Positions 3,353-11,353 of a DNA stretch of 64,000 nt are shown here, piece by piece. Where the stretch lies: assembly GCA_033764955.1 (NCBI GenBank), contig JANRIL010000015.1:69918-133917 (forward strand), given 5' to 3'. Both the position numbers and the translations under genes were made by a program. Within the stretch, counting starts at the first letter, position 1; every line of letters begins with the position of its first letter. The notes beneath the pieces were generated by a model. The model saw nothing but the letters and a program-made list of their open reading frames with translations. It was not told where the DNA came from and made no database searches. Source of the stretch: Cyanobacteriota bacterium. GTDB taxonomy: Bacteria; Cyanobacteriota; Cyanobacteriia; Thermostichales; Thermostichaceae.

Positions 3353-4018
3353 ATGAGTGGACTGTGGGGTAGAGTGAAGGACTTTGTGGGTTGGACGGAT
3401 CCCGTAGATGGCTTAGAAGACTATTCTGAGATGGCGGATCAAGAGGATTATCAATCCCTGTTTGAGCAGAGCAAGCGTCATCCTCAAGCCTCGCAGGCTG
3501 CCATGTCCTCAGAAGGGGCCGAAGAGCCTGCCTCTGATTATGGCCAAGGAATGGGGACTCGCCCACGTCGGCAGCGGTCAACAGAATGGTCAGAAGCTAC
3601 GCATCGACGCACAAATCGGGAACGCTCTCTAGGTAACAACATGGCTAGCAATGTTATTGGGTTGCCCAGTGTCAACTCGGCCACCAGCGAAGTAGTGGTG
3701 ATGGATCCCCGCAGCTTTGATGAGATGGCGCAGGTCGTACAAAATCTGCGAGATCGCAAAACGGTGATCATGAACCTCACCCTGATGGATCCGGCTGATG
3801 CCCAGCGCTCCGTTGACTTTGTGGCGGGGGGAACCTACGCCATTGATGGCCACCAAGAGCGGATCGGCGAGAATATCTTTCTGTTTACGCCCAGCACGGT
3901 AGCGGTTACCACCTCCTCTAGCTATGGGGCGCAGCCAACCCAACGCACCATGCCCAGCCCTACCTCCATCTGGTCAGCGGTAGCCTATGATCCGGTTCAT
4001 GCTGTTGGTCAGCGCTAA
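3353..4018 (+). CDS. sepF: Cell division protein SepF (ATG 3353 preferred over TTG 3317)
   Basis: C-terminal [31 protein letters not shown]. Confidence 0.93.
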
Positions 4019-8208: not shown

Positions 8209-9162
8209 ATGAATATTGCCGAGAATATCACGCAACTGATCGGTCGTACTCCATTGGTACAACTGAATCGGATCCCGCAATCAGAGGGATGTCAGGCACG
8301 TATTCTGGTGAAGCTGGAGAGTTTTAACCCTGCTGCTTCCGTCAAAGATCGGATTGCCGTCAGTATGATCGACGCTGCCGAAAAAGCAGGCAAGATTGTC
8401 CCAGGAAAAACAATTTTGGTGGAACCCACCTCCGGCAATACTGGCATTGGATTGGCGATGGCCGCCGCCGCCCGTGGATATCGTTTGATTATCACGATGC
8501 CAGAAACCATGAGTATGGAACGGCGGCTGTTGCTGAAAGCTTATGGGGCTGAGGTGCATCTCGCTAGTGGTTCAGGCGGCATGGGGGAGGCCATTTGGAA
8601 AGCCGAGGAAATCGTGCGGCGGACTCCCGATGCCTATATGTTGGGACAGTTTAGCAATCCAGCTAACCCTCAAATTCATCACGAAACCACTGGCCCTGAA
8701 ATTTGGCAAGACACCGAGGGAAAAGTTGATATTTTTGTGGCGGGTGTGGGCACCGGAGGGACAATTACCGGAGTTGGCAGCTATCTCAAGCGGCAAAATC
8801 CCAACATTCAGATTGTGGCGGTGGAACCTGCAAGTAGCGCGGTTTTGAGTGGGCGGCGTCCGGGATCCCATCGCATTGAAGGGATTGGGGCAGGGTTTAT
8901 TCCTGATGTTTTGCGGCGAGATTTAATTGATCAGGTGATAGCTATTGATGACGAAACCAGTATGGTTTTTAGCCGTCGCCTTGCCAAAGAAGAAGGGATC
9001 CTTTCGGGAATCTCCACCGGAGCTGCCCTAGCTGCTGCCATCGATCTCGGATCCCGCCCTGAAAATGCTCATAAGTGGATTGTTTTTGTCCAGCCCAGTT
9101 TTGGGGAGCGCTATTTGAGTACACCTCTTTTTCGAGATTTAGAAACGATCCCCAACCCATAG
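8209..9162 (+). CDS. cysK: Cysteine synthase A
   Basis: [28 protein letters not shown]. Confidence 0.95.
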
Positions 9163-9184
9163 ATCATCCATCCACTGTAGGGAG

Positions 9185-9272
9185 TGTTATCGTTGCCCAT
9201 CACCCGCCGCCGATCAACTCTCGGACTCAACCAGTAACCTTTGAACGGTCGGGTGCATGGGCGTTGTTATAC
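9185..9272 (-). mobile_element. Integron attC site; R' box reads GAT instead of GTT
   Basis: Minus strand: GTATAAC-aac-GCCCAT(G)CACCCG...CGGGTGATGGGC-aac-GATAACA. Imperfect inverted repeat with an extrahelical G, starting 27 nt after the SnoaL stop. Confidence 0.8.
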
Positions 9273-9299
9273 GGCGTTTACATAGTTAACTATCTCGCC

Positions 9300-9707
9300 C
9301 TAAACTTTCTCAGTTATTTGCTTCCACAAGCGATCAAAGTCTATTTCATCCCAACACTCCGCAATTTTGCCATCCTGGATTCTGTAGATAACAATTCCGG
9401 TAAACTCTACTTTCCGATTAGTAGGAGAGATACCATGAAATTCTTTTCTATGGGTTCCTCTTGTCGTAACACGAAGTACAACTCTGTCATTTTCAGCGAT
9501 CATGTCTTCCACTGAATAATGAGAGTCGGGAAACGCTTCTACGAATGCCAACTCCAATTGCTGAAGCTCGTGAAAATCAATCACGCCGTCCCTACTACGC
9601 CCAACAAAATCCAAAGAGATATAATCTTCAAAGCCATTGGAAAACCCATTATTGGCATTAGCAATCCAATCTCTTATGAGATTTCTATTGATCTCTTGAT
9701 TCGTCAT
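9300..9707 (-). CDS. SnoaL-like / ester cyclase (NTF2 fold)
   Basis: AFPD, AENDRVVLR, GTH, GISPTNRKV, DGKIAECW. Confidence 0.88.
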   Translation of the reverse strand: MTNQEINRNLIRDWIANANNGFSNGFEDYISLDFVGRSRDGVIDFHELQQLELAFVEAFPDSHYSVEDMIAENDRVVLRVTTRGTHRKEFHGISPTNRKVEFTGIVIYRIQDGKIAECWDEIDFDRLWKQITEKV

Positions 9708-9733
9708 CGGTTCATTCCAATCAAATAAGAAAA

Positions 9734-10180
9734 CTATATTCTAGACGGTTCAACCATTTGAATACCATGCTTCTCAAGAATTGCAGGCATCTTGGTTAGA
9801 TCGCCAGGTAAATCTTTGATTTTCTCTGACATTTCAATGAAAAAATCGTCAATTTTACCTCCGACTGCCCATGCAAGAAACTTGACAGATTGATTGGAAT
9901 TGTTTTTGTAACCATGGGTTGTTCTAGCAGGCACATACACAAAGTCACCAGGCTTGATCATAAACTCTCCACCATCCAGATACATGATCATTGAGCCTTC
10001 TAGCATATAGTAGCTTTCCTCTTCTTTGGCATGAGTATGTGGAGGAACGAAACCGTTTGGAGGAACATCGACAGTCATAACTGCCATACTATTGAGTGTG
10101 TGCGTGGACTTTAATTTGATGCACACCCTATCACTCAAAACTTGTAGGCTTTGACCTTCTTCACCTTTCAGTACCATCAT
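9734..10180 (-). CDS. Cupin domain protein (ATG 10180 after an AGAGG RBS preferred)
   Basis: PPHTHAKEEESYYMLEG and GDFVYVPARTTHGY cupin motifs. Confidence 0.88.
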   Translation of the reverse strand: MMVLKGEEGQSLQVLSDRVCIKLKSTHTLNSMAVMTVDVPPNGFVPPHTHAKEEESYYMLEGSMIMYLDGGEFMIKPGDFVYVPARTTHGYKNNSNQSVKFLAWAVGGKIDDFFIEMSEKIKDLPGDLTKMPAILEKHGIQMVEPSRI

Positions 10181-10336
10181 ATTTTTGTTCCTCTCTGGAG
10201 CTAACACATAGAGGTACGTATGAACAGTTCGCTTGGATCTCCGGGTTCAAAAGTTTTGACCGATCTAGCCGTATAACAATCGGCTGTCCCCTGCCCTGGT
10301 TTTTGGCCTGCCGATCAGCAAGGTTTTCCTAGATAG

Positions 10337-10460
10337 CAGCATCAACGGGTTGACAAGGGGAGTAGTAGAACCAGCTACATTGAGGGGTTTAACGGCACCT
10401 TACGTCAGGGATCCTCGCCCCCAGTTCAGAAAGGGATGTGCTTCTATCAAAGAAAATTTA
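10337..10460 (+). pseudogene. IS1-family InsB transposase C-terminal fragment
   Basis: Translates QHQRVDKGSSRTSYIEGFNGTLRQGSSPPVQKGMCF, resembling the InsB T-x-x-IERFNxTLRQ...LVRK motif; no start codon. Confidence 0.6.
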
Positions 10461-10520
10461 TAGTCATTCCAATTTAATTTGAGAATCGCAAAGCCTATCA
10501 CAGCTTGGTTAGAATGACTT
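10459..10520. repeat. Short MITE-like inverted-repeat element
   Basis: TATAGTCATTCCAA ... TTAGAATGACT terminal inverted repeats. Confidence 0.4.
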
Positions 10521-10573
10521 GGCTAGTCGCATGCTTATCTGGAATAACGATAAGTAGCGTCGTAATATGTCCT

Positions 10574-11353
10574 TTACAAAAAACGAGTCATCTGCACCCG
10601 GTAGCGACCCTTTTTGGTCTCCGCCACATCGTCAATTTGTAGGCGTCCCCGACCCCGTATGGTCACCAGATCCTGAGGGTTGAGGGGATGGCTGGGCTGA
10701 GTAACCGTTTTCCAGTTAACCCGCACCTCACCCCGTTCAATTTCTTGTACCATTTTGCTGCGGGACATGCTAAACCCAGCCGAAGCTAGCGCATCCAGCC
10801 GCAGAGAGGCTTCCACAGAGGCAATCGCTTTGGTTTGGGGAGGGCGAATCTTGAGATCCCCCAAGGGGATCCCCTTCACCTTGACGGGAACCGAACGCAC
10901 CTGCGTCAGATGGGTTTGTAGATAGTCGGCAATTTCGGGCAAGACAATCACCTGGGATCCCTGTTCCCCCAAAACCAGCAGATCCCCCACCTTATCGCGG
11001 ACAATGCCTGTCCCCAAGATGGCTCCCAAAAAATCGGGATGGGTGGCTGTATCAAACAAAAAATTGCCCTGGATATTAAGGGCGGCTAAGGGAATCTGCT
11101 CACGACTCGGCAACATCTCGGGACGGGAGATAGCTAGCCGTTGTCGCTCCGCCTGGGCATAGCCTCCCCAAGCCACTGCCCCCACTTCCGTCAGTCGTTG
11201 AAAACGGCTAAGGGCTTCAGCAATTTCCGGTGGGGATAAAAAATCGGAATAGGTGACTTGCCACGTTTTGAGAGACTGCTCAGCAAGATCCAATAAGCGA
11301 GCCAAGCTTTCTCGATGCTCGGTTCCCTGCAACAGTTCACTTCTGGGTACCAT
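10574..11353 (-). CDS. Photosystem II S4-domain protein (YlmH/Sll1252 family)
   Basis: WGGYAQAERQR, GNFLFD, EASLRLDALAS, C-terminal S4 domain. Confidence 0.9.
   Translation of the reverse strand: MVPRSELLQGTEHRESLARLLDLAEQSLKTWQVTYSDFLSPPEIAEALSRFQRLTEVGAVAWGGYAQAERQRLAISRPEMLPSREQIPLAALNIQGNFLFDTATHPDFLGAILGTGIVRDKVGDLLVLGEQGSQVIVLPEIADYLQTHLTQVRSVPVKVKGIPLGDLKIRPPQTKAIASVEASLRLDALASAGFSMSRSKMVQEIERGEVRVNWKTVTQPSHPLNPQDLVTIRGRGRLQIDDVAETKKGRYRVQMTRFL

Follow-up and report, generated by a model that had tools for sequence, protein, structure and literature searches.

The insertion of resistance cassettes at secondary GTT-like sites of plasmids is a classical phenomenon, in which the integron integrase places a cassette outside attI at a minimal triplet. 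A route into genomes at large is described in the attG preprint (10.1101/2022.09.11.507474), in which the insertion sites have a 5'-GWT-3' consensus and resemble neither attC nor attI, and single cassettes of this kind are treated as SALINs. The same source reports that cassettes inserted in the genome can undergo precise excision at the insertion point and can be expressed from nearby promoters. Further, the IntegronFinder survey records integrons in Cyanobacteria as well as integrase-less attC clusters, the CALINs (PMC4889954).

Here we examine a locus in a 64-kb stretch of cyanobacterial DNA (hereafter the window), which we interpret as a single integron cassette lying outside any att site and which was probably inserted by the attC x attG route at a G|AT target, forming a SALIN. 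As in the insertions of the attG preprint, there is a lone cassette with one attC far from other att sites and from intI, a G|WT junction, flanks unlike attC and attI, and genes that point toward the attC. The insertions described there were made by class 1-3 integrases in Escherichia coli and Vibrio cholerae, whereas the present one is inferred in a cyanobacterium with two integrases of its own; moreover, the right-hand CRGM motif described for the E. coli hotspots is absent, with positions 6-9 reading ACTC. The classical plasmid case resembles the window case in the placement of a cassette outside attI at a minimal triplet; the former, however, concerns clinical resistance cassettes on plasmids, and the latter a chromosomal cassette of unassigned function in an environmental phototroph. 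With the sedentary chromosomal integrons and CALINs, as presented in the survey (PMC4889954), the genome shares complete integrons, here two, each with intI, attI and an array (of 4 and 7-8 sites), alongside many integrase-less attC clusters, and its attC architecture also matches theirs in the R boxes, the unpaired central spacer, the bulges and the variable loop. Unlike in the arrays of such integrons, the window cassette stands outside an array and the attC sites of the genome are unusually scattered.

SALINs, attG sites and cyanobacterial integrons are thus already on record, and the window case is a further example. Our literature search found no paper on attG insertions in cyanobacteria, although there may be a SALIN list with such genomes in it.

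Architecture and composition of the locus

The cassette is situated where cysK and a ylmH-like gene converge with their 3' ends (Table 1), and neither flanking direct repeats around it nor an adjoining transposase were found at the locus. The initial annotation had drawn attention to an AT-rich block of about 1.09 kb with two co-oriented minus-strand genes. Its AT-richness is evident from a GC content of 0.417 in the cassette against 0.526 in the remaining window, and from a sliding profile that runs at 0.37-0.43 within the block and 0.50-0.57 beyond it; both genes are real, with matches to SnoaL (PF07366) and Cupin_2 (PF07883), but the limits proposed for the block, 9185-10277, had to be corrected to 9191-10276.

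The window is rich in the octamer GGGATCCC, a HIP1-like over-represented palindrome, which has 89 occurrences in the 64 kb (about one per 720 bp) against 2.5 expected. That the block is free of this octamer, as was initially remarked, is literally true but carries little weight, gaps of such size being common: the chance of a 1.1-kb gap is about 0.2 and several 2-kb gaps are seen elsewhere in the window. We accordingly discarded the gap as evidence for a cassette. The spacer on the ylmH-like side additionally holds a MITE-like dispersed repeat of about 95 nt (10456-10552) with short inverted ends at 10462-10472 and 10509-10519, of which the genome contains at least 17 further copies (73-96% identity) and which lies 180 nt from the cassette.

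Table 1. Features of the cassette locus, in window positions, and of the two resident integrase genes, in contig positions
Feature	Position	Strand	Details
cysK (name used here), PLP-dependent enzyme of the cysteine-synthase type, housekeeping	8209..9162	+	PF00291, E 1.8e-77
cysK-side target flank	9163..9190	.	28 nt, from cysK stop codon to crossover
Whole cassette: attC, SnoaL gene, cupin gene and start TTATACGGC (minus strand)	9191..10276	-	1086 bp; limits set by the crossover C (9191) and by the end of the far-end box (10276|10277)
attC, shown on recombining (bottom) strand	9182..9275	+	covariance model R1, 65.7 bits, E 1.9e-16
attC hybrid outer box GTGTTAT|C	9184-9191	+	G|AT on gene strand; crossover between 9190 and 9191
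attC outer spacer GTT	9192-9194	+	unpaired
attC 5' arm	9195-9209	+	
attC 3' arm	9246-9262	+	bulged T9249 and C9256, 7 nt apart
attC inner spacer GTT	9263-9265	+	unpaired
attC inner box GTTATACGGC	9266-9275	+	
SnoaL-like protein gene	9300..9707	-	135 aa; PF07366, E 5.9e-29
Cupin_2 protein gene	9734..10180	-	148 aa; PF07883, E 3.3e-18; ATG at 10180, upstream GTG at 10207 also open
Far-end box GCCGTATAA|CAA (cassette start in reverse complement)	10268..10279	+	crossover between 10276 and 10277
ylmH-like-side target flank	10277..10573	.	297 nt; contains dispersed repeat at about 10456-10552
YlmH-like S4-domain protein gene, housekeeping	10574..11353	-	PF17774 and PF01479; co-oriented with, and upstream of, cassette genes
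Integrase gene	C9:16-1116	-	366 aa
Integrase gene	C38		351 aa

The attC site

The palindrome at 9182-9275 is a genuine attC site. Collection of comparable sites by a BLAST search of the 101-nt element against its own genome, followed by two nhmmer rounds, yielded about 68, with a common layout comprising an outer box ..TAA|C, a 3-nt spacer, a stem whose sequence diverges yet stays complementary, two bulged bases on one arm, a variable loop with a GCAGATAAC-like motif and a closing inner box GTTAG or GTTAT. From 20 of these, excluding the window site and including 7 from the two integrase-adjoining arrays, we built the covariance model R1. This is a custom-made model, the training sites of which were first found by their likeness to the window attC, but the covariation in them is independent of how they were found. 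In the 20-site alignment, with a hand-drawn structure, 89.8% of the cells are paired and 12 of the 19 pairs have changed on both sides in a compensatory manner. Shuffled controls reached the observed value in 0 of 500 cases on four of five measures, and in 1 of 500 for the number of pairs with a change on each side; sliding the partners lowered the pairing to 23-44%.

The initial description of an attC-like hairpin is vindicated by its R1 score (Table 1), and the covariance-model check proposed along with it, for which we used R1 rather than the model of IntegronFinder, returned 9182-9275 as the single match that the 64-kb window yields up to E 10. Genome-wide, R1 recovers 82 sites at E 0.01 or better, among which the window attC ranks 24th. 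Scanning 9000-10600 against Rfam (E up to 10) gave only chance-level matches; the attC family is absent from that library.

The hairpin folds with an energy of -19.4 kcal/mol (z -2.4) and has the form of an imperfect palindrome, with an unpaired GTT/GTT central spacer and two bulges on one arm. An unpaired spacer and an extrahelical base had been described at the outset, and the hairpin is indeed of that kind, though with two bulged bases rather than one. By eye, the column of the T bulge (68) is invariant across the 20-site alignment and that of the C bulge (76) is C in 18 of 20 rows. Canonical attC bulges are a T and a G about 8 nt apart. The inner box (R'') retains the GTT/AAC triplet, reading GTTATAC at 9266-9272 on the + strand, in a column that is invariant in the alignment. 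The outer box (R') lacks the standard AAC of the bottom strand and reads TTAT|C, or G|AT on the gene strand, and is the sole non-standard pair in the alignment of the window attC to R1. Such an outer box would be expected of an insertion, because the letters beyond the crossover would then come from the target.

Ends of the cassette and the junctions

Both ends of the cassette are precise integrase crossover points. The 12 letters at 9264-9275, TTGTTATACGGC, are the perfect complement of those at 10268-10279, and the cassette begins with a TTRRRY motif complementary to its own inner box. This inverted complement had been noticed before as an exact match of 10 bp; its exactness holds and its actual length is 12 nt. 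A perfect complement at the far end is what is expected of a circular cassette opened at G|TT, and even an exact 9-mer complement would be found by chance only about 0.02 times in 6 kb per site. At least 13 other attC sites of the genome have exact 9-mer complements, 0.4-3.8 kb away, which coincide with the next attC in the arrays and with attI in C38.

On the + strand the attC-side junction reads ...GGAGTGTTAT|CGTTGCCC, where other sites of the genome have ..TAA|CG.., and the far-side junction reads GCCGTATAA|CAATCGG. Three independent comparisons agree on these points and thereby fix the ends to the base. In the first genome, G327, the cassette is shared from its first base (..CAGTTG|TTATACGGCTGG..; start G|TTATACGGC) and the flank is unrelated; in G003, the cassette start (G|TCATACAGC) directly follows another attC in an array of seven R1 matches; and in the metagenome runs X1 and X2, nine of the attC-like contigs listed have their match begin precisely at position 9191, with one more in X3 and four that begin at 9187 or 9194. 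The letters that precede the match in the X1 and X2 contigs, where listed, end in canonical ..TAA or ..GAA, and the cassette contigs of 94% identity in these two runs stop matching at 10279.

The GAT reading of the distal box in the initial annotation is confirmed (GTTAT|C on the + strand), as is the finding that the left flank is neither attC- nor attI-like, since it has no R1 match and no likeness to either attI. More generally, no second R1 match occurs in the window at E up to 10, and comparison with both attI of the genome revealed no likeness in the left flank or in the 297 nt on the ylmH-like side. A G|WT junction with flanks unlike attC and attI, as in the products of attG insertion, is therefore what we see here. 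The left flank agrees in 10 of 18 letters with the arm of the attC that precedes the cassette in G003, which we take to be a chance likeness as R1 finds no attC there.

The cassette genes

Both ORFs are intact, and our best guess is that they encode small enzymes for the tailoring or detoxification of a small molecule; neither the SnoaL nor the cupin ORF reaches a curated cut-off of NCBIfam. Both are also open in the copy of the genome G039. Relative to that copy, the codon differences of the SnoaL gene comprise 28 synonymous-only and 15 amino-acid-changing ones, and those of the cupin gene 26 and 37, respectively. By this comparison the SnoaL protein looks to be under constraint and the cupin looks less constrained. 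A protein-pattern scan of genome contigs with the cupin retrieved one relative of 58% and one weak match, neither of which was informative.

Both genes are directed toward the attC. A scan for promoters and terminators found 4 promoter-like sites against 3.1 expected, which is chance level, and a terminator-like hairpin that overlaps the end of the ylmH-like gene, upstream of the cassette genes. As no promoter of their own stands out, their expression would depend on read-through from the ylmH-like gene.

Integron content of the genome

The host is a cyanobacterium, as indicated by 11 phycobilisome-protein matches; that protein family has matches only in Synechococcus elongatus among 14 control genomes. 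Its genome, searched for intI and further attC copies as had been recommended, contains two intact integron integrases (TIGR02249 scores of 462.5 and 451 bits, where the cut-off is 265) with the C-terminal motifs ..HTFRHSFATHLL.. and ..MIYTHV... Each intI diverges from an array in which the attC sites share one orientation, with 7 full and 1 partial site on contig C9 and 4 on C38. The attI regions (C9:1101-1200 and C38:63340-63480) share the palindrome TTATACGGAAA(A/T)TTTCCGTATA, followed by a ..TAG|TTAG crossover. The half-site of this palindrome, TTATACGG, is identical to the start of the studied cassette. Fragments or pseudogenes of intI also occur on four contigs (C36:180-860, C4:4-123, C30:655-831 and C38:182627-182934), some interrupted by in-frame stops, others located at contig ends.

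In all, the 82 attC sites of this 3.8-Mb genome are distributed over 47 loci on 28 contigs; 30 of the loci are single, and 24 of those are more than 5 kb from a contig end. The nearest attC to that of the window on its contig is 64.6 kb away and the intI genes are on C9 and C38, so that it is, like a SALIN, a lone attC with no other attC, attI or intI nearby. The cassette is thus an orphan in the sense of standing outside arrays and not of being without an integrase: its initial description as such is accurate for the locus, but not for the genome with its two intact intI, each with an array. Likewise, the integrase that had been surmised to act in trans does have candidates on other contigs, although these are resident rather than foreign.

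The crossover letters of the 80 full-length attC sites are AAC in 66 cases and ATC in 4, and other types of decay, namely AAG, AGC, ACC and AAT, are also represented. All ATC crossovers are in singletons (4 of 29, versus 0 of 51 arrayed sites; hypergeometric probability about 0.015 by our own arithmetic), and a fifth site of the ATC type, C42:17034, was found by nhmmer only. The far ends of all five ATC-type sites were sought and were found only for the window site and for one on C36. GGAT|C is read at three of the five G|AT-type junctions. By a hand tally, GAT is present at about 4 of the roughly 47 locus-ending attC junctions, a share below that of a free choice among GWT triplets; either the integrase prefers GTT or a different origin applies to many of the lone sites.

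A further lone cassette of the G|AT type, at C36:55216 (locus L002 of this genome), carries two small ORFs on the minus strand (112 and 171 aa) and is bracketed by a 103-bp direct repeat (L002 1397-1499 and 2611-2713) that is absent elsewhere in the genome; the second repeat copy lies about 150 nt from the cassette start. This repeat is not explained by simple integrase insertion. Separately, a 22-nt flank, GGTCTGTCATCAATTCGATAA|C, recurs at the end of six or seven attC loci (C11:33775, C23:45255, C27:18905, C27:112533 and C4:15557, with variants at C38:64789 and C43:30567). Beyond it the sequences diverge, often just after the stop codon of a gene, and a near-copy without an attC is seen at C7:103480; a shared right half was sought at the other ends of these loci and none was found. 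The flank could represent either a favored secondary attachment site or a remnant common to these loci.

Spread of the cassette and the search for the empty site

Among 400 other genomes of the class, 7 have DNA matches to the cassette at E 1e-20 or better, in six families, with 1 of 22 genomes in its own family. The identity is 83-85% in G003, G039 and G327 and 68-75% in the remaining four genomes, as against 66-76% at the DNA level for the flanking housekeeping genes in relatives, and a copy of 94% identity is present in freshwater metagenomes. Its low GC, its patchy occurrence and, in three genomes, an identity exceeding that of the flanking genes mark the cassette as foreign and mobile.

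The copies differ in their extent. That of G327 comprises the first 613 nt only, and that of G003 differs at its 3' end and by 140 nt inserted between the genes. The latter answers the earlier question as to whether the cassette occurs in arrays elsewhere: the array in G003, a relative from the host's own family (L029, G003:C56 3828-12204; the seven R1 matches mentioned above), carries it. The attC at 3828-3922 of this array has arms near-identical to those of the window attC and a canonical ..ATAA|C end. The G039 copy includes both genes; a canonical attC (..CTAA|C) follows 490 nt further on and is the only attC in 14.8 kb.

Under a GAT target, the empty site is predicted to read ...GGAGTGTTAT|CAATCGGCTG... 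(also written GTTATCAAT); a GTT target would give ...GTTAAC... instead. Exact scans of a metagenome collection with the 20-nt left flank and with the predicted joined 20-mer gave 0 matches each. Three sequencing runs sharing few words yielded attC sites of other organisms and the 94% cassette copy; neither the window locus nor its joints were seen in them. In 40 relatives, none of the same genus, the flanking genes of the 2.8-kb locus are never neighbours, being 62-262 kb apart or on different contigs. As the empty site was not found, GAT as the target triplet is a deduction from the occupied junction.

Origin of the insertion

We propose that a circular cassette, consisting of the cupin gene, the SnoaL gene and the attC, was inserted by one of the integron integrases of the genome itself, its target being ordinary chromosomal DNA in the spacer toward which cysK and the ylmH-like gene converge. 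The folded bottom strand of the attC (the + strand of the window) would have recombined at its A|C crossover with a non-att partner, 5'-G|AT-3' on the gene strand, leaving a single attC outside any array. The agency of IntI and the GAT triplet are the parts of this scheme that we infer. The initial annotation had likewise proposed a natural attC x attG insertion in a cyanobacterium; the attC, the base-exact ends, the non-att flanks and the G|AT junction uphold it, with the identity of the target triplet as GAT being the part that stays presumptive. The accompanying suggestion that the cassette is probably immobilised is unsupported and conflicts with the precise excision reported in the attG preprint (10.1101/2022.09.11.507474). 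Were the cassette to be excised, the circle junction is predicted to read GCCGTATAA|CGTTGCCC.

The same event could have used a GTT target, with the junction having since become GAT by one A-to-T substitution in the outer box, a course that would fit the junction itself equally well. The outer box TTAT|C is indeed only one base from TTAA|C, the predominance of AAC over ATC among the attC sites of the genome agrees with it, and the bases outside the crossover would be freed from selection for pairing after integration. Yet the confinement of all four ATC sites to singletons fits letters derived from the target better than random decay, and GAT is an accepted triplet within the GWT consensus of the preprint (10.1101/2022.09.11.507474), which leads us to regard a later change as unlikely. 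An origin of another sort, wherein the cassette is the last survivor of a former array or CALIN whose other cassettes and integrase were deleted, might be entertained in a genome where arrays evidently break up, as the intI fragments on four contigs and the many short attC clusters attest. But both ends of the 1086-bp unit lie exactly at crossovers, which would call for two improbable independent deletions, and the unit abuts housekeeping DNA, the cysK stop being 28 nt away and the 297 nt on the opposite side being free of att-like remnants; we consider this history quite improbable.

Least credible of all, to a degree that makes us give it hardly any weight, is the arrival of the block without an integron integrase, as part of a larger foreign fragment or with another mobile element, the palindrome being incidental. 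The dispersed repeat in the same spacer and the 103-bp flanking duplication of the sister case on C36 might be cited in its favor; however, with its conserved bulges and spacer the palindrome receives the score of an attC, agreement of the ends with the crossover is exact to the base in three genomes, and neither direct repeats nor a transposase flank the cassette. Hence, insertion by the attC x attG route at a G|AT target is the reading that we favor as the probable one.

Implications

The attG route rests on a laboratory demonstration with clinical integrases, in the light of which lone attC sites of genomes came to be regarded as the trace that it leaves in nature. Junctions of natural origin mostly read GTT and cannot be told apart from ordinary attC ends. 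The combination of a G|AT junction, base-exact ends and resident integrases therefore makes for a clean example from nature, in a phylum remote from the model systems. Integrase and target, both native, are also available here as a testable pair, with which one may ask whether environmental integrases use genomic sites in the way the clinical ones do.

What lifts the case above the routine is this base-exact natural G|AT junction together with the wide scatter of cassettes, which suggests that integrons have a share in cyanobacterial gene gain well outside their arrays. As only two integron platforms stand against 47 attC loci, of which 30 are single, and at least six junctions share GGTCTGTCATCAATTCGATAA|C, it is conceivable, if rather doubtful at present, that insertion outside the integron is the main fate of cassettes in this lineage and that the 22-nt flank is a dedicated secondary attachment site of a hitherto undescribed kind. 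If so, the integron would be a genome-wide gene-insertion system in a polyploid phototroph.
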